Below, in pieces: positions 1 through 8,807 of a DNA stretch of 64,000 nucleotides; within the stretch, counting starts at the first letter, position 1, and every line of letters begins with the position of its first letter. Location: assembly GCA_963813075.1 (NCBI GenBank), contig CAWEXU010000017.1:1-64000 (forward strand), in the 5' to 3' direction. The position numbers were made by a program, and so were the translations under genes. Origin of the DNA: Methanotrichaceae archaeon. Lineage in GTDB: Archaea; Halobacteriota; Methanosarcinia; Methanotrichales; Methanotrichaceae. The notes under the pieces are model-generated. The model was not told where the DNA came from and did no database searches. It saw only the letters and a list, made by a program, of their open reading frames with translations.

Positions 1-1019
1 GCACCAAAGCCGAGGTCTTGAGGAGCCTTGCCGCTGCAGGCTGCGCCTTCGCCGAGGCTCTTATGCGCTACAGGCATCTCTCCTACAATCTGCTGTTTCT
101 GAACAAATGGCTGGAGAGGATTCATCCTCTGGACGGCAGGGTCCACCCTCAGTACTTCCAGATTCCCGCCTCAACCGGACGAATCAGCTCCCGCCATCCC
201 AATGCTCAGCAGATCCCCCGCCGGGGAGAGGATGCCCCAGCCATAAGGGGGCTGTTTCGCCCGGCGGCAGGAAAGAGGTTTGTCAAGGCCGACTTATCCA
301 ATATCGAGCTGCGCATAATGGCCCGTATTTCCGGGGATGAGGCGATGCAGCAGGCCTTTATAAACGGCGTCGACCTGCACCGGCTGACTGCTTCCCGGAT
401 CAGCGGAACTCCCCTGGAAGAGGTGACGGATTCGCAGAGGCAGGCGGCCAAGGCCATGAACTTCCTGCTCATCTACGGCGGATCGGCCAGGACGCTGCAG
501 TGGCGCATCCTCTCCGACTATGGGGAGTTCATCTGCCTGGATGAGGCGGAAGAGCGCATGGAGAAGTTCTTCTGCAGCTATCCGGGAATAAGGGAGTGGC
601 AGAAGAGGCAGCTATCTGAGATGAGCTACACTGCACAGCACCACTTCCATAATTGCGTGCGGGGATTCTTCTCGTTGCCGCTGACAGCCACCAGAACGGT
701 CCTCGGGCGGAGGCGGATCTGGCCGCGCTTTGGGGCAGGGATCACCGCCAGCAAGTTCCAGATGTACAATACCCCCTGCCAGGGGACGGGCGCAGATCTG
801 ATCAAGCTGGTGATGGCCGAGGTCTATGAGAAGCTGTTGGATGAGGAGGCGAGGATGATAGGCTCCATCCACGATGAGATCATCCTGGAGGTTCCGGAGG
901 ATCGAGCGGAGGAGTATGCAGCAAGGCTGAAGGAGATCATGGAGAGGATAGGGTCCCAGATGCTCTATCCCGTGCCGGTGAAGGCGGAGGCGAGGGTGAT
1001 GAGAACTTTAGCGGAATGA
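1..1019 (+). CDS. polA: Family A DNA polymerase, C-terminal polymerase domain (5' end lies left of the window)
   Basis: TGRISSRHPNAQQIP, motif A KADLSNIELR, motif B RQAAKAMNFLLIYG, NTPCQGTGAD and motif C IHDEII. The frame is open back to position 3 (TKAEVL). Confidence 0.93.
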   Translation, partial: TKAEVLRSLAAAGCAFAEALMRYRHLSYNLLFLNKWLERIHPLDGRVHPQYFQIPASTGRISSRHPNAQQIPRRGEDAPAIRGLFRPAAGKRFVKADLSNIELRIMARISGDEAMQQAFINGVDLHRLTASRISGTPLEEVTDSQRQAAKAMNFLLIYGGSARTLQWRILSDYGEFICLDEAEERMEKFFCSYPGIREWQKRQLSEMSYTAQHHFHNCVRGFFSLPLTATRTVLGRRRIWPRFGAGITASKFQMYNTPCQGTGADLIKLVMAEVYEKLLDEEARMIGSIHDEIILEVPEDRAEEYAARLKEIMERIGSQMLYPVPVKAEARVMRTLAE

Positions 1020-1024
1020 TCCGG

Positions 1025-1032
1025 TTTTTTTT
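1025..1032 (+). terminator. Oligo-T tract, probable archaeal terminator of polA
   Basis: T8 run 5 nt after the polA stop codon. Confidence 0.45.
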
Positions 1033-1199
1033 GAGGGCTGTATTCGCTGCGTCGATGGTTTTGGATTGTGATATATTAAAGAGAAAAATTCGCCAGGCGG
1101 GTGCGGTGAAAAGTTTGAACTGCTTTTTGATGGGGCTCGAAGGATATCGAATTTTAGCATAGTTGATTTCTCGAATCCAGGCTGTTATCAAGGCTAAAA

Positions 1200-1330
1200 T
1201 TGATCTACACAGACTATTTTTTTAGTGCACGCCGCGAGTCGGGCCTCCGGCCCTCCCGCGCTAATGCCCTGGTCCCCCTCAACGCCGGGGAGGCTTGGAT
1301 ACAATCGAAGCTGGCCGTTGATGGTTTTAG
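1200..1330 (-). repeat. Dispersed structured non-coding element, copy 1
   Basis: Shares the 30-nt core cccctcaacgccggggWggcttggatacaa (1275-1304) and a flanking hairpin with the copies at 6083-6268 and 7845-8038. Confidence 0.85.
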
Positions 1331-1446
1331 ACGCAACAATACGAATATTATTTGTATGTAGAATGAAAAAGCAGCACGGGATTCGTGTAAGGAGAGATTG
1401 GTCCAATATTTTTATAATTTGAATAGTATTCGCCAGGCGGGCCGGG

Positions 1447-2577
1447 GCCACTTCTTTTCAGAAATGGATAGAGATAGTAAGTGGAATGCTGGCCAGGAGC
1501 TGCGGGTTTCAATGGAGCCACTTCTTTTCAGAAATGGATAGAGACAGAGTGCCGTTACAGATGACTGCTGCAGACATGACGCGTTTCAATGGAGCCACTT
1601 CTTTTCAGAAATGGATAGGCTTAAAGGCACGTAGACGACGCTATAGCCATCAATGAGTTTCAATGGAGCCACTTCTTTTCAGAAATGGATAGGTCAGCGG
1701 TAACGCGCATAGTCTAGACAGAGATGCCAATGAGCGTTTCAATGGAGCCACTTCTTTTCAGAAATGGATAGGATTCAGACTGCAGATCGTATCAGTAACG
1801 AAGCCAATGAAGCGTTTCAATGGAGCCACTTCTTTTCAGAAATGGATAGCTGCTGAGATGACATTCGGGCCATGCATTGCCAGATGAAGTTTCAATGGAG
1901 CCACTTCTTTTCAGAAATGGATAGAGATCTGTAGACTGGCATCTGATCGACAGTGCAACGGCGTTTCAATGGAGCCACTTCTTTTCAGAAATGGATAGAC
2001 GATATGCAGCGATGAGCCTGCGGCTGAATGGCATGGTTTCAATGGAGCCACTTCTTTTCAGAAATGGATAGGCTGATGACGCTGTGGAGCTAGAATAGAT
2101 GCATGAGCGTTTCAATGGAGCCACTTCTTTTCAGAAATGGATAGGTTGAGAAGTCTTCGACATGATGCTTTAAGTCAAGAGTATGTTTCAATGGAGCCAC
2201 TTCTTTTCAGAAATGGATAGGGTCATCGAGTCAAGGATAGCGACATCGGGTTTCAATGGAGCCACTTCTTTTCAGAAATGGATAGATCGATTTGGCAGGC
2301 ATGAATGACTGGCGTTTCAATGGAGCCACTTCTTTTCAGAAATGGATAGATAGCAATGTGTGAGCCGACTCTACGAGTCTTTCGACGGGTTTCAATGGAG
2401 CCACTTCTTTTCAGAAATGGATAGTCGGATTGTGAAGGCAGACTCATACCATAAGCAATGCGCAGTTTCAATGGAGCCACTTCTTTTCAGAAATGGATAG
2501 ACTGGACCAGTTGCGAATGACGAACTGGCAATGATACGTAGGTTTCAATGGAGCCACTTCTTTTCAGAAATGGATAG
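1447..2577 (-). CRISPR. CRISPR array: 15 full 36-bp repeats plus 1 truncated trailer repeat, 15 spacers of 28-43 bp
   Basis: Identical gtttcaatggagccacttcttttcagaaatggatag at 1506, 1583, 1657, 1736, 1814, 1889, 1963, 2036, 2109, 2185, 2250, 2314, 2389, 2465 and 2542, with a partial copy at 1447-1471. The minus-strand repeat ends ATTGAAAC and the leader lies on the cas2 side. Confidence 0.98.
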
Positions 2578-2830
2578 AGCAACCATTTTTTGGCCGTTGC
2601 TGTTATCGAAATAACGCCGTTAAGCGCGGATCGACCTAACTGCCAAGTATTTTTCAGATTTAAGCGTTTTTATTAAACTCTAATTCGCTATGCACAGCTT
2701 TAGCGCGGATCGTCGATACTCTTTATATTTTTTATAATTGTGCGTATGTCATCACAGGAGTTTTCGTAATACTGGCCTTATATAGCCTATGTACCTCCCG
2801 GATCCACCTGAATCTTTGCATGCTATCATT
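2578..2830 (-). promoter_or_regulatory. CRISPR leader
   Basis: AT-rich non-coding stretch between cas2 and the first repeat. It contains the 11-bp direct repeat agcgcggatcg at 2623 and 2702. Confidence 0.75.
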
Positions 2831-3124
2831 CTATAATAATTTTCCGGTCCTACTTGCTCCCTATGGACCCCGAGAAATTCAATTCTCTCCATGACTCTGC
2901 CTTCGTTTGGACCAAGATCTATAATCATTATTCGATCCTCATCCGGATTTATCAGATCTGTGAGAGACTGCTACCATCTCCACCCGACCTCTCGGGGTGA
3001 GATCGCAGCGAAAGACTGAGTAGTGGACCGGCTCTCCAAAACCTTTCATGGCCCTATGAACCCTGCAAAGCCTCTTTTGCTCCCTGATATCGTAGCTGAC
3101 TATATAGCAGTTCAAGCTGCTCAT
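2831..3124 (-). CDS. cas2: CRISPR-associated endoribonuclease Cas2 (one frameshift near 2960)
   Basis: MSSLNCYIVSYDIREQKRLCRVHRAMKGFGEPVHYSVFRCDL, continuing in another frame as EDRIMIIDLGP...IEFLG to TAG at 2831. Confidence 0.9.
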
Positions 3125-3131
3125 GTTCAGA

Positions 3132-4858
3132 TCACCTGATGACGAATGCCGGATATTCTTTAGCTCACCTGAAAGAACCCTGGATAGCAGCCTGGCCTGC
3201 ACCTCAAGCACTCTGCGATAGCTTATTTTATAGCCAAAAATGGGATGAACGATCTCCGTCTGCATTCTCTGCTCGTAGCCAGCAACTACCTTTCGTTTTG
3301 CCTCCGGCGTCAATGATATCCCGATGCCGGTCCTGATGAAATCCTTATCCGTCAGCTCTTTTTTGTTAAATAGCGTAAATGCCGTGGAATCGGCAATTAC
3401 TGGCCGGAATTCCTCCATCATGTCCAGAGCCAGAGCCGGGCGGCCATACCTGGGCTGATGATAGAAACCGAGATAGGGTTCAAAGCCTGCTGCCAGAACG
3501 GTGGAGAAGAGCTCCTTGGCCAGAATGCCGTAAAGATAGGAGAGAGTCGAGTTCACTGGATCCCGAGGTGGCCTCTTGTTTCGTCCCTCGAAGGTAGAAT
3601 GTCCCTTCTGCCACCTTGAGCAAGCTGCCGAATCTGGAGAAATAGGCTGATGCTGCCGCACCCTCGATTCCCAGAAGGCTTTGCGGTTAGAGGCATTTTC
3701 AGCCTCCTTCGCGAGAGACGGCCAGAGATTCCAGCACCTTCTCGGGCACATCGGAATCGTATCTGCGCAATCGAACTCTGCAGTTCTCGATCTTCGCCGG
3801 ATACGAATCTTGCGGGAAATGGAAAGCGACTTCTCTTCGTCCTCTGCCCAACTGAAACTGCTTGATGCGCAAAAGCACATTCTTGTGGCTCATCCCCAGA
3901 GCGATGCCCTGAAACCAGCCGCCGTGGGAGAAGTGCAGCACAGGCACATTCCTCTGCATCAGCTCGACCATGGCGGGAGTTGTGATCTCCGCGTCGCCGT
4001 AGAGGCAGACCTTGGAGATCTCCCTGATTCTGGCCTCGCTGATCTTGCCCTCATCATAGGACCAGACCTCCAGCCGCTCGCCCCTCTTGCGAACCGTCTT
4101 CCCCTGGCCGACAACATAAAGCAGGAACCTGATCGTCCCGGCTGGCAAGGAGCATTCTGATCTTCTCCTCCGGTTTGCCTTCCTGGTTCTCTTCCTGATC
4201 CCTTCTGTTTGGCTCTTTCTCCGCCTCCATCTCTCGCAAGAGGTTGACCTCGTCGGGCAGGCATATCCCGGCCATTGAGCAGCGATCGCACCTTTGGCTA
4301 TTCTGCAGAGGCGGGGGAAGCTCGCCCCGCTGAACCGTCCTTCGCATGTCTGCCAGCAGCGCCATTGTTCGGTCCAGAAGTTGACGAGTCGAACTTCACC
4401 GGCACTCTTTCCTGGGATCGAATATAGTAGACCATCCCTTCATCGCAGGAAAAGCCGTTCTCCCGCAGGGCAAGGCACTGGGCTGCCAGCTGGATCAGAT
4501 GAGGCTCGAAGATCCCTGGCCCTGCCTGGCCTTTTCGCGCCTCCCCGCGCTTGTACTCTATCGGCGTGACCTGGCTGCCATCCCCCTCCAGAAGGTCGAT
4601 CCGGCAGCATACTCCCGCCTGCGGAGCGGAGAGGGAGACGGATCGGGCATGAAAGGGCTGGAAGTCCTCCGGGATGGCATCCTGCTCTGCATCTATCCAG
4701 CGGTGAAGGTAGCGCCCTTCTACGGTCTCGGCGCTATCCTGGAATTCACCCTGCACCCATTGAAGATAGCTGAGCCGGGGGCAATAGGCATAAGCGGCGA
4801 GCATGCTGGCTGGTATGAGCTCGGGGGCGGTGATCTTACTGGGTTCTTCGTCTGCCAA
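3132..4858 (-). CDS. cas1: Cas4-Cas1 fusion (type I-G-like architecture), broken by about 6-7 frameshifts
   Basis: Cas4: YAYCPR, RIDLL..PIEYKRG, CDRCSMAGICLPDE. Cas1: LYVVGQGKTVRKRGERL, GIEG, RNKRPPRDPVNSTLSYLY, GFYHQPRYGRPALALDMMEEFRP, HPIFGYKISYRR, ending YPAFVIR*. Confidence 0.9.
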
Positions 4859-4977
4859 CTTTGTGGCCTCCTGTCAAGATAATGAGGATTGCATCCTAGA
4901 TAAATATGTTTAACTGTTTGACCTGGCCGGAAGTTGGCATTTAGCAGCAGGACTGCACTCTGCTCTGGCCCGACGGG

Positions 4978-5009
4978 CATATAAATATAATAGTATTCTC
5001 CGGTGGGGC
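4978..5009 (-). promoter_or_regulatory. Repeated promoter motif upstream of cas4-cas1
   Basis: Minus strand reads CCACCGGAGAATACTA-TTATA-TTTATAT. Related motifs occur at ~1070-1101, 1410-1441, 5950-5985, 6212-6246 and 7984-8020. Confidence 0.55.
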
Positions 5010-5105
5010 AGGATATGACAGCTCCCAGAAGATTCCGCCAGCGGTATCTCGACTGGCTAACATTTTTATATCTTTCTCAGCGCATTCGGATAGATGATGA
5101 GGTAG

Positions 5106-5851
5106 GTGAGTGCATTGGATGAAAAAAGAAATGAGCCTGTGAAGAAAACCATCGATGACCTGGGCCCTACACTGTCCAGGCTGAGATGGTGGAAGAAGAT
5201 CTGGCATGTTTTGATCTATGCCATCGGTCATCAGAAGCTGCGGATCGGTATTATGACCGTGTTTATCTGCTTGTGGCATTAGGAGCCTTTTTCTGGAGTG
5301 AGCTGCAGCTTCCATCTGTCTCTCAAGATACACCGGAGGGCATCATCGAATGGCTGCTGAACGCCCAGACCATTCTGGGCATGGGCACCCTTCTGGTTGC
5401 CCTCTTCGTCTGGATAGGGGAGATAGAAAAGAACTGGGAGGAGAGCCTGCCAAAGCGGCTCAGCGTCTTTTTCTTCTGGGAGGGAAAGCCCCTGATCGTC
5501 TGCCGCTATGTCTGGCTGGCCGGAGCAGATGAGATCAGAATCTGGGGGCAGCAGGTGGCAGTGCAGGCTCAGGAGGTCATGCCTGAAAAGAAGCCTCAGG
5601 ACTCATTTCTTCATTTCGAACCGGACATGCAGACGAGGAGCCCTGAGCATCTCATTGCGCCCAGAGGCGGGGTCTGGAAGCACTATTCGATATGCTTTAA
5701 GCTGACCGACCTGAACACGAGCCTGAGAAGGACAAAAGAATACTGCAGATATCAGAACGTGGCGGGAACTGATAAAGCGGCCGGCAATTTCCCCATCGAT
5801 CTGGTGGAATCAATCCCAGAGGTCTCCAGATGGAAGGAGGGCATGATTTGA
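5106..5851 (+). CDS. Hypothetical membrane protein (about 2 N-terminal TM helices plus a soluble C-terminal domain); frameshift near 5267
   Basis: GTG at 5106 after GAGGT reads MSALDEKRNEPVKK...LRIGIMTVFI and joins the ORF 5186..5851 frame (LLVALGAFFW...ILGMGTLLVALFVWIG...LPKRLSVFF...EIRIWGQQ). Confidence 0.7.
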
Positions 5852-6022
5852 ATAAGGCATCTTTGGATTGATAGCATTCCAGCGCTCTCGCAGGTTGCGC
5901 CGCACTGCCCTGGTGGTGAGCAGCAGAATTGCAGCCTGGCCCCAGCGGGCTATAAAATGATTAGTATTCTCCAGGCAGGCCAGGCCTCACACATCTGTCT
6001 GCCTAATGGTATTGATGCACTA

Positions 6023-6080
6023 TTATCGCCCTTCTGACCGCTTCACATCCACCACCTGGCCCATCGACCACTTTTGGTTG
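6023..6080 (-). pseudogene. csx3: csx3 C-terminal remnant
   Basis: Reads NQKWSMGQVVDVKRSEGR*, matching SQKWQVGQVVDV of the 6290-6572 copy. Confidence 0.7.
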
Positions 6081-6082
6081 TT

Positions 6083-6268
6083 GGAGTTTGATCTATTCAT
6101 GCGAGCTGCTTTTCAGCGGGCGCCGCGCGCGGTGATACGCGCGGTAGTGCCCTGGTCCCCTCAACGCCGGGGTGGCTTGGATACAAACGGGGCAAAGCCG
6201 TTGTGGTTCTGGATTATATCACGGTTAATATTCCCCAGGCGGGCCCAGTTTGAACTGCTGGCTTGCCC
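6083..6268 (-). repeat. Dispersed structured non-coding element with promoter motif, copy 2
   Basis: Core at 6157-6186; tttgatctattcatgcgagctg is identical to copy 3; cgcgcg/cgcgcg hairpin. Confidence 0.85.
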
Positions 6269-6289
6269 TGCAAATCAAGCTGCATCACC

Positions 6290-6572
6290 CTACTTTCTCC
6301 GTACCGGCAGGGTCACATCCACTACCTGGCCCACCTGCCACTTCTGGCTATGCGTGGCCACCACCACCGCCCCCAGGCGGGGATCGTAGAAGGCGATGGC
6401 AGCGGCGGGGGAAGCATGCAGCAGGTGCAGTGCCATGCCGTATCGCCAGATGGGAGCGCGTCCTTCGATGATAACCAAAGAGCCACGGGGGATGTCGGGC
6501 AGTGGCGGGAGCGGCTCGGCTGGGGTGATGGGGGGAGGAGACGGCGATGGAGTAGATGATGAGGGCGGTCAA
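6290..6572 (-). CDS. csx3: CRISPR-associated protein Csx3 (Crn3 ring nuclease family), copy A; +1 frameshift in the G-run near 6530
   Basis: Joined protein: MTALIIYSIAVSSPITPAEPLPPLPDIPRGSLVIIEGRAPIWRYGMALHLLHASPAAAIAFYDPRLGAVVVATHSQKWQVGQVVDV. GRxPIW, HxxH and YDPRLGAVVV.SH are Csx3 signatures. Confidence 0.88.
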
Positions 6573-6581
6573 TTTTCTAGC

Positions 6582-6869
6582 CTAAGCTTTTTCCTCTGGG
6601 AGAACGAAGGTGTCCACCAGACCGGTAATTACCTCCTCCACAAGGTTAGATACAGTCCTTCTTCTTTGTAGGGCAAGTTTTTCCAGTTTGGAGAAGGCAG
6701 GTTCCGGCAGCTCAACAAGCACCCGGCATAGTCTCTGATCCTTTTCGAACGTCTTCCAGCGAGCTTCAGAGTTCTCTGCATCCTGGATCGCTTCAGCGGC
6801 TGAAAGCACCTCTTCTTCCGGCTCATGTGGTGCATACTTTTTTTTCATTTCATGGCCTCTTTCCGACAT
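6582..6869 (-). CDS. Putative antitoxin, ribbon-helix-helix/CopG-like
   Basis: Small protein with RVLVELPEPAFSKLEKLALQRRRTVSNLVEEVI, directly downstream of a PIN gene. Confidence 0.6.
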   Translation of the reverse strand: MSERGHEMKKKYAPHEPEEEVLSAAEAIQDAENSEARWKTFEKDQRLCRVLVELPEPAFSKLEKLALQRRRTVSNLVEEVITGLVDTFVLPEEKA

Positions 6870-7425
6870 CCTTCAAACTTCATATATTTCATTTATCAAC
6901 TTGGTGGAGTAATGGGTCCCCTGTCTTTGGCACTCAGTCCAGTGCAACCAGCACATCCTCTGGCTCGATAATTTGTTGCCAGCAAGCCCGAACCAGGATG
7001 CCAGGAAATCCAATGATGGGTACTCTTCTTCGATTGGCAACATCTCTTGCAGCCAGTTCGTCGATGAGCAAGCTCAACAGCCGGGGAGCTTCTTCTCAGC
7101 ATTAGGACAATGGCAAAGGACTCAGGGAGGTGGTGATCAGGATTTTTGTCCCTTGTTGCTTGATGGTTTGCAATCTCTGAAGCGATGACCTTGCAGCTTC
7201 AGTTTCTACAGGCGTGAAATCCTGGTGGACTACAGATAAACCCGGATCTCTAAGAGATCGCTGATCTCATGATCTGCACCATGCTTCTGGTATTCATGAA
7301 ATCTCGTCCACCGGTATATGAATCTGGTCGTAGAACTGAAGCAGTATATGCATGCAATCAGATTGCAGCGCTGAAATCAGCGGACCGGTATTGCTTACGA
7401 CAATTCTTGGGCTCGCGTGCATCAT
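6850..7425 (-). pseudogene. PIN-domain (DUF3368-like) toxin gene with several frameshifts
   Basis: ATG at 7425 gives MMHASPRIVVSNTGPLISALQ..HIPVDE; a later frame gives LLIDELAARDVANRRRVPIIGFPGILVRA. Not assembled in the ORF track. Confidence 0.7.
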
Positions 7426-7469
7426 AGTGCTCTTAAATAAATTTTGCATATCTTCCTATAAAAAATCAT

Positions 7470-7822
7470 TCATTGCTGATTTAAGGGATTGATCATTATA
7501 AAAAATATCTCCGTCGCCGGAGGGCCCCCCAGAGGATGGCTCGTTCCACATTCCGCGGGTGGCGTCACATCCACCACCTGGCCCATCTGCCACACCGGGC
7601 TATGCGGGCACCACCACCGCCCCCAGGCGAGGATCGTAGAAGGCGATGGCTGCGGCGCGGGAAGCATGCAGCAGGTGCAGTGCCATGCCGTATCTCCATA
7701 TTGGTGCCCGATCCTCGACAATGACCAAAGAGCTCGCGCGGGATAAAAGGCAAAGGCGGGAGCGGCTCGGCTGGGTTGATGGGCGAGGAGACGGCGATGG
7801 AGTAGATGATGAGGGAAATCAT
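7470..7822 (-). pseudogene. csx3: Csx3 copy B, two frameshifts (near 7733 and 7606)
   Basis: MISLIIYSIAVSSPINPAEPLPPLP.. / LVIVEDRAPIWRYGMALHLLHASRAAAIAFYDPRLGAVVV / HSPVWQMGQVVDV. The DNA closely duplicates 6312-6565. Confidence 0.82.
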
Positions 7823-7844
7823 TTTTTCCAGGCCTGATTCATTG

Positions 7845-8038
7845 GGAATTTGATCTATTCATGCGAGCTGTTTTTCAGTGGGCACCGCGAGTCGGCCTGC
7901 TGGCCTCCCGCGCTATGCTCTGGGGCCCCTCAACGCCGGGGTGGCTTGGATACAATCGAGGCAAAGCCGTCGATTGGTTCTGTATTATAAAAAGACTAAT
8001 ATTCTACACGTAGGCCCGGTTGAATGGCGTGCTTGCCC
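7845..8038 (-). repeat. Dispersed structured non-coding element with promoter motif, copy 3 (upstream of csx3 copy B)
   Basis: Core at 7926-7955; minus-strand TTTTTATAA box near 7985-7993. Confidence 0.85.
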
Positions 8039-8163
8039 ACACTCGAAAATCTCCCTCCTTTAGCACATGTAGCATCACATCCACCCCTCAGAATTTCCTC
8101 CTCTATATTCGACGGTTATCTTTAAGTTAATTGACGATCGCCATTGACCGCGGTGAGTAAGAC

Positions 8164-8807
8164 ATGATAAGGATACTCGGCATTCTGGCTCTTCTGTCCA
8201 TCCTGGCCCTGCCCGGCAGCGCTCAGGATTATCTTGAGGGCGGAAATGTAGGACCCTATACAGGCGACGCGGGCCAGTACTTCACAGACCCCATATTCAT
8301 GATGAAGGTCGGCGGCGGCACATCATGTGCCACCCAGCAGCGTTCAGGCATCTAAACCCGTCTCCCCCCTGGGCTCGACTGTGGGCAAGACCACAATGGG
8401 AAGATACAGCGCATCCAACACCCCGGTGGCAAAAACCTTCTCCAGCGCTCCGGTGACTCAGCCGCAAACCCCAGCCGCAATCCAGCCAGCCACTTCAACT
8501 GGCGTACTCAGGAAAGTGGATCCTCCAGCTCTCTGAGGGCCAGACCATCTCCCTGGACCTGCATCAATCCGGAAACAGGCTCTTTGGCCGGGGGAGCTTC
8601 ACCTATAGCAGCACCACCCAGATGGCCCTGGCCAGCGGAACCATATCCGGCAACAGCATAACCTTGGACATCCTGCCTGAGAGCGGAACTGAGCTTTATA
8701 CCCTATCGATTGATACCAGCAGATTGAATGTGCCCTCCAAGTACACCGCTTACCGCTACGGAGCCCTTACCGGGTACGGAACAGTCATCGCCAGCAAGAT
8801 TGGCTAA
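8164..8807 (+). CDS. Secreted hypothetical protein (one gene split by frameshifts into three ORFs)
   Basis: Signal peptide [20 protein letters not shown]; successive ORFs at 8164, 8327 and 8622 continue one S/T-rich beta protein. Confidence 0.6.

Follow-up and report, generated by a model that had tools for sequence, protein, structure and literature searches.

What is the hairpin-rich element that recurs beside a CRISPR array and two csx3 genes in a Methanotrichaceae archaeon, and does it belong to the CRISPR system? The window analysed here is a stretch of 64,000 nucleotides (nt), positions 1 to 64,000 of contig CAWEXU010000017.1 (assembly GCA_963813075.1), and it carries three full copies of this unannotated element between positions 1,200 and 8,038. 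An earlier note, made from the letters of the window alone, read the element as a functional RNA, such as a CRISPR-linked non-coding RNA or a riboswitch-like csx3 leader, and named a single-stranded DNA (ssDNA) element as the alternative. The alternative fits best: the family is scattered throughout the genome, and the element is probably an interspersed mosaic DNA repeat of Methanothrix that resembles repetitive extragenic palindromic (REP) sequences and bacterial interspersed mosaic elements (BIMEs) and acts as a recombination hot spot.

The three copies and their positions are real, with a 30-nt core that matches exactly at 1275, 6157 and 7926 and has 21 exact occurrences genome-wide. A profile built from them gave 50 matches covering the core at E<0.01 in the source genome (G000; other G and L labels denote compared genomes and loci), lying in 22 clusters on 11 contigs and including a second subtype with a different hairpin 2 as well as some partial copies. 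Close neighbouring pairs are co-oriented in 27 of 28 cases in this genome. The family is characterized by a core of ~100 nt with two hairpins, a single folding strand, exchangeable modules, an intergenic position, often between convergent genes, and a copy number that is very uneven between species. Of 59 genomes, nine had exact 12-mer counts of 54, 36, 35, 33, 26, 23, 10, 10 and 8, and the remaining 50 had 0-4, the control also giving 0-4; lone matches in low-copy genomes are mostly due to chance, as only 4 of 20 that were fetched proved to be true elements.

By BLAST, the element was found in 23 of 36 genomes of the same genus and in none of 24 from other families. A sequence-only model similarly detected it in 21 of 27 genomes of the genus and 0 of 61 from other families, with weak, uninspected matches in 4 of 32 genomes from other genera of the family. 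Named records that carry the element are Methanothrix or Methanotrichaceae/Methanosarcinales bins, from which we infer that it belongs to the genus Methanothrix. Pattern matches outside Methanothrix are weak (E above 1e-5) with the single exception of L120, a record labelled Candidatus Nanosynbacter; it has typical copies, and mis-binning of a Methanothrix contig is the probable explanation.

On the minus strand, the core runs from a conserved block starting GTATCC through hairpin 2, which has a 4-bp stem and an 8-nt loop, and a linker to hairpin 1 and an A-rich tract. In hairpin 1, the inner GGCC stem is bordered on each side by GA and enclosed by an outer CGCG stem, and the tip is short; the GA flanks would form tandem sheared pairs. 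Its tips in the three window copies have the sequences first reported for them. As single copies fold no better than shuffled sequences (z = 0.53, -1.03 and -1.35 for the three window copies, minus strand), all structural support is comparative. The minus strand had been proposed as the structured one, and it is the more stable strand in 81 of 82 copies folded as DNA and in 82 of 82 folded as RNA. Compensatory change had likewise been claimed for the stems, and in hairpin 2 it is evident: in an alignment of 67 copies (A2) pairing in this stem reaches 98.5%, and two of its pairs have changed on both sides; across 165 copies pair 2 takes all four Watson-Crick forms (CG 92, GC 64, AT 4, TA 3, unpaired 2). 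The GCTT/AAGC stem is 70.5% paired in A2. The stems of hairpin 1 are near-invariant, with one inner pair double-changed in 9 of 199 copies, and here support comes from the swapping of tips and of whole forms.

Such features could also belong to a structured non-coding RNA or mRNA 3' element made from the minus strand, serving as a stabiliser, an antisense RNA or a protein-binding site and multiplied along with its neighbours. A covarying stem with a conserved 8-nt loop, the better folding of the minus strand and the conservation of an orthologous copy in at least eight species all speak for an RNA, as does an enrichment of convergent gene ends: convergent pairs enclose 12 of 31 G000 sites compared with 116 of 670 in the background, and divergent pairs enclose 3 of 31 (one of these sites is probably a false match, and the gene caller misses frame-shifted genes). 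We nevertheless regard this explanation as unlikely. The folded strand has no U-tract, and the conserved promoter suggested earlier is not apparent, since 7 of 26 own-genome copies have a TATA-like word at the proposed location, which equals the background of 26%. The suggested pseudoknot fares no better; its helix is 80.5% paired with zero double changes in A2, and only 3 of 72 loop variants have the partner that it requires. Rfam returned no match at the gathering score in the window; with the limit relaxed to E<=10, the region 900-8200 gave only four matches elsewhere, all due to chance. A comparison by eye with the consensus cores of known ribozymes (HDV-like, twister, hammerhead and pistol) showed no fit.

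The tips of hairpin 1 point to DNA rather than RNA. The main form is represented by 199 distinct copies, and of their 181 scorable minus-strand tips 147 end in GNA, whereas 105 of 1136 control GGCC hairpins do so (9%); kin share tips, and these counts are therefore not independent events. GNRA tips, by comparison, were seen in 1 of 86 copies on the minus strand and in none on the plus strand in a smaller set. As GNA mini-hairpins have much greater stability as DNA than as RNA (PMC13037366), their prevalence favours ssDNA, although it is not proof.

Phage priming sites and N4 promoters also have GNA mini-hairpins (PMC13037366), and six viral contigs (L057, L450-L454) and one terminase-bearing contig (L263) each carry a copy of the element. 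Both observations would suit a single-strand priming or protein-binding signal that arose in Methanothrix viruses or mobile elements and was seeded into chromosomes. This origin is very unlikely, however, as the chromosomal copies are vastly more numerous and the viral copies are situated among ordinary genes; in the nearby open reading frames (ORFs), read by eye, no primase, Rep or relaxase was recognised.

The association with CRISPR that drew attention to the element proved to be that of one subfamily. In 6 of 11 repeat groups, hairpin 2 lies at a fixed 168-177 bp from the trailer repeat, so that the link to the CRISPR trailer noted for one window copy is real for this subfamily; the family as a whole is genome-wide and thus not CRISPR-specific. 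In another subfamily, the element has a csx3 3' end on one side and a csx3 start on the other. Two copies in the window had been described as preceding csx3. This holds for copy 3, which lies ~23 nt before a csx3 start, but copy 2 precedes only a 34-nt csx3 3' scrap, and both copies are themselves preceded by a csx3 3' end. The position of copy 3, the recurrence of csx3 neighbours in other species and the fixed trailer distance are what a leader that senses cyclic oligoadenylate (cA4), or a CRISPR-specific non-coding RNA, would call for. Against this, 22 of 31 G000 sites lie >600 bp from any CRISPR repeat word or csx3 end, and three genomes (G030, G016 and G111; 62-82% complete) have 26-35 motif matches but no cas4g/cas1g match. 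A gene start lies downstream on the folded strand in just 35 of 80 sites, with unrelated neighbours, which argues that the element is not a leader; we find this explanation scarcely credible.

Within ~2 kb of the copies, a scan of 137 ORFs identified HicA/HicB, PIN, ParE, MazE, Mrr, GmrSD, TPR, csx3, csa3/cas6 and pieces of polA, along with housekeeping genes at island edges. Clustering of neighbouring proteins from genome and metagenome loci yielded only HicB-like, csx3, TPR, PIN, NYN and housekeeping families. NYN genes adjoin the element in three high-copy genomes, and a further hairpin module in direct orientation flanks an NYN-like gene in L083 (170-240 and 1040-1110).

The copies are arranged as mosaics whose flanks have been reassorted. 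In G113, an inverted core lies 128-207 bp from a sister module in 32 of 38 cases and a co-oriented core in none; core and inverted sister together form units of 350-450 bp that are repeated in tandem, which is the layout of a BIME (PMC8266576). G000 has two inverted doublets, while the copies in the window are co-oriented singles. For most copies in G005 and G022, the best left-flank and right-flank partners in G000 are different copies, and synteny switches between G000 contigs at copies. When metagenome contigs were compared with a G005 island, depth stepped at element borders (for example from 115 to 20 in X14), consistent with cargo that differs between strains; contigs break at repeats anyway. 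In G022, element, mini-array and leader recur together as tandem blocks. Also duplicated with the element are orphan CRISPR mini-arrays that have a leader, 1-11 repeats and differing spacers (L220 4750-8700; L217; G000 C24 14076).

Layouts of this kind raise the question of a dedicated ssDNA recombination site, attC-like in its logic, at which a recombinase would cut out and integrate cassettes carrying defence genes and CRISPR mini-arrays. Integron attC arrays, including the archaeal clusters of attC sites that can lack the integrase IntI (CALINs; PMC9668308), share with the element one folded strand and co-oriented sites amid toxin-antitoxin and restriction genes. The tandem units of G022, the steps in metagenome depth and the csx3 3' end on one side with a 5' start on the other would all fit. 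We nonetheless judge such a site distinctly unlikely. The R-box pairing of attC is not conserved here (AAC/GTT is 80.5% paired, with no double change, and is lost in other species), there is no fixed crossover point, the cargo lies in both orientations, and many solitary copies are found between housekeeping genes. Two joints seen in metagenome contigs fit other repeat copies. IntI (TIGR02249) was over cut-off in 0 of 59 genomes, which would not alone exclude a CALIN, and the one tyrosine recombinase of G000 lies away from the elements. It is equally unlikely that the repeat serves an undescribed archaeal single-strand cassette system with an enzyme outside the known transposase and integrase families; such a system would duplicate and shuffle toxin-antitoxin genes, csx3 and whole CRISPR mini-arrays, leaders included, within the chromosome and the viruses of Methanothrix.

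A miniature inverted-repeat transposable element, or the decayed end of a known insertion sequence, would explain the patchy high copy number, and IS200/IS605 transposases are present in these genomes. The printed flanks of the IS200/IS605-type genes, however, bear their own, different hairpins. Homology between copies of the element is ragged, stopping at many places on both sides, no terminal inverted repeat or target duplication was seen, and there was no clean empty site among the copies compared. With reverse transcriptase over cut-off in 0 of 5 genomes as well, this origin is highly improbable. A tRNA-derived att site was also considered: there is a weak likeness to a tRNA 5' half, but no called tRNA in the genome begins with the sequence. 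One copy lies ~400 bp from a tRNA-Leu (C4). A Methanothrix satellite family with a 156-nt unit, given in a table mostly of protein repeats (PMC6749651), was not taken to be this element.

We take the element to resemble Pseudomonas-type REPs and DUF559-linked repeats. With GTAG-tagged REPs, BIMEs and REP doublets forming hairpins (REPINs), which are associated with REP-associated tyrosine transposases (RAYTs), it shares intergenic imperfect palindromes with a bulge in the stem, folding that is specific to one strand, doublets joined in inverted orientation by a linker, copies in tandem, copy numbers that are uneven among relatives and a TAG-like tag before the stem (PMC8266576, PMC3733652). 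It differs from them in its archaeal host, in a two-hairpin core of ~100 nt set in mosaics of 200-450 nt, in a tag that is mostly ATAG or TTAG, in the lack of any RAYT found, in numbering tens rather than hundreds of copies and in a strong link to defence cargo. REPs are defined by a GTAG or GTGG tetranucleotide 0-2 nt before the stem, and archaea are reported to have the IS200 subclass alone (10.1101/279083); the RAYT enzyme class has not been reported from them. CGTC-tagged REPs and Ssn-related motifs are also hairpin repeats that may lack an adjacent transposase, and the NTS repeats have been discussed as modulators of recombination (PMC3733652, PMC11893778). The published Ssn-related pattern (PMC11893778), however, matches 0 of 199 Methanothrix copies, no small GIY-YIG gene was found in the five Methanothrix genomes searched, and the main text of that paper makes no mention of archaea. 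RepRanger (PMC12306157) covers generic palindromes in six archaea, none of the genus Methanothrix. In the literature searched, which largely excluded subscription papers and did not cover supplements, we found no description of this element. As far as that search reached, it is undescribed, and it is probably an archaeal form of REP/BIME-like repeats. We do not file it as a member of the REP/BIME group, because the GTAG tag and the RAYT were not found as that group has them.

Several observations weigh against a REP/BIME-like ssDNA repeat that promotes recombination. Although NTAG precedes the stem in 124 of 199 copies, the canonical GTAG does so in just 13 and GTGG in 1. RAYT (NF047646) was over cut-off in 0 of 59 genomes; GIY-YIG matches in five high-copy genomes fall only in ORFs of 520-554 aa, in four of the five; the 9 of 59 genomes that have DUF559 include only one of the six richest, and there the flanks of DUF559 lack the element; and GxxExxY is present in 1 of 5. 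The cas-linked family A polymerase polA was rejected as a spreader, being absent from G030, G016, G111 and G022. No candidate enzyme tracks the element, whether RAYT, IntI, GIY-YIG, DUF559, GxxExxY, reverse transcriptase, IS200/IS605 TnpA, polA or cas4g/cas1g; many of the genomes searched are incomplete. Many tips are not pure triloops but four-base loops that end in GNA (AGCA, CGCA), and in 51 of 86 copies UNCG would be read on the plus strand. Among 43 copies, internal markers drift gradually from left-linked to right-linked with no sharp crossover point, and left and right flanks remain correlated (Mantel r 0.43), so that plain homologous recombination accounts for the flank shuffling just as well. 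No clean insertion was seen in any pairing of a copy with an empty site. Finally, one copy is retained between a hisB-like gene and an S-layer gene in at least eight low-copy species, which suggests a host function.

The coordinates of the copies and of their neighbours in the window are collected in the table. The partial copy reported at 1048-1123 is real, and its identity is that of the promoter-like, M-motif part of the second subtype. Hairpin 1 of copy 2 is of the simple CGCG-stem type, a form also seen in the inverted sister module. The M motif is near-palindromic and follows a TATA-like stretch on the plus strand (1087-1101, 1427-1441, 4994-5008, 5965-5979 and 6229-6243); its possible roles are those of an operator or of a promoter that drives antisense transcription into CRISPR trailers. 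It is also found alone, upstream of cas4 and near csa3 genes elsewhere. The GGATAC block (1292-1302) and the TTTTCAG tract (6110-6116) look like the opposite ends of the local CRISPR repeats' 3' half, as though the hairpins sat within a repeat-like word, though these are short words.

Table. Copies of the element and neighbouring features in the window
Feature	Position	Strand	Remarks
Family A DNA polymerase gene, 3' part	3..1019	+	cas-linked; a neighbour, not the spreading enzyme
Partial module, second subtype	1048..1199	not set	TATA-like stretch, M motif (1087-1101); shared left-flank module preceding copy 1 in many loci
Copy 1 core	1200..1330	-	A-tract, hairpin 1 (1233-1260, GGA tip), hairpin 2 (1275-1290), conserved block with GGATAC (1292-1302)
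Linker, AT-rich, with M motif (1427-1441)	1331..1443	not set	ties copy 1 to the truncated terminal CRISPR repeat at a fixed 168-177 bp spacing
CRISPR array, 16 repeats	1444..2578	-	trailer end towards copy 1; type I-G according to the neighbouring cas4g/cas1g match
cas4g/cas1g and cas2	2939..4858	-	frame-shifted in this assembly
csx3 3' scrap following copy 2	6044..6077	-	a shorter scrap at ~8074-8086
Copy 2	6083..6268	-	hairpin 1 (~6123-6144), hairpin 2 (6157-6172), M motif (6229-6243)
csx3 copy	6306..6572	-	frame-shifted in this assembly; 3' end towards copy 2
Second csx3 copy	7565..7822	-	frame-shifted; start ~23 nt past copy 3
Copy 3	7845..8038	-	hairpin 1 (7886-7912, AGCA tip), hairpin 2 (7926-7941), M motif degenerate

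The frameshifts in cas1, cas4 and both csx3 copies lie partly at homopolymers and may be assembly errors. Between cas4g/cas1g and csx3 is a 221-aa ORF of no known family (5186-5851), a position that is filled in L138 and L283 by an ORF of no assigned family. The family A polymerase (628 aa in G005; PADLOC match RTasPolA; loci L227-L256) is present in 31 of 59 Methanothrix genomes, often adjoining cas4g/cas1g. Near-identical IS110-family transposase genes were found inside type I-G CRISPR arrays at three places (L038, L041 and L042; G000 C7 and C10), which suggests repeat-targeted insertion, and an IS605-type tnpB interrupts the cas1-cas2 region of G000 (L044 4960-6093).

If the element is indeed a REP/BIME-like hot spot, its working form would be ssDNA, and it would be spread by a trans-acting protein or nuclease that reads its hairpins. 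Toxin-antitoxin genes, restriction genes, csx3 and blocks of CRISPR trailer or mini-array would then be duplicated, swapped or lost through recombination at its copies, and the links to CRISPR and csx3 would be those of subfamilies duplicated along with that cargo. REP/BIME families defined with ssDNA hallmarks have so far been mainly bacterial. Expansion without a RAYT in some Methanothrix species would imply either a hairpin-processing protein of a new kind or spread that requires no enzyme. In Methanothrix, a major acetate-using methanogen, the element would also give a concrete reason why defence islands and orphan CRISPR arrays turn over, and it would explain why assemblies break at these sites.

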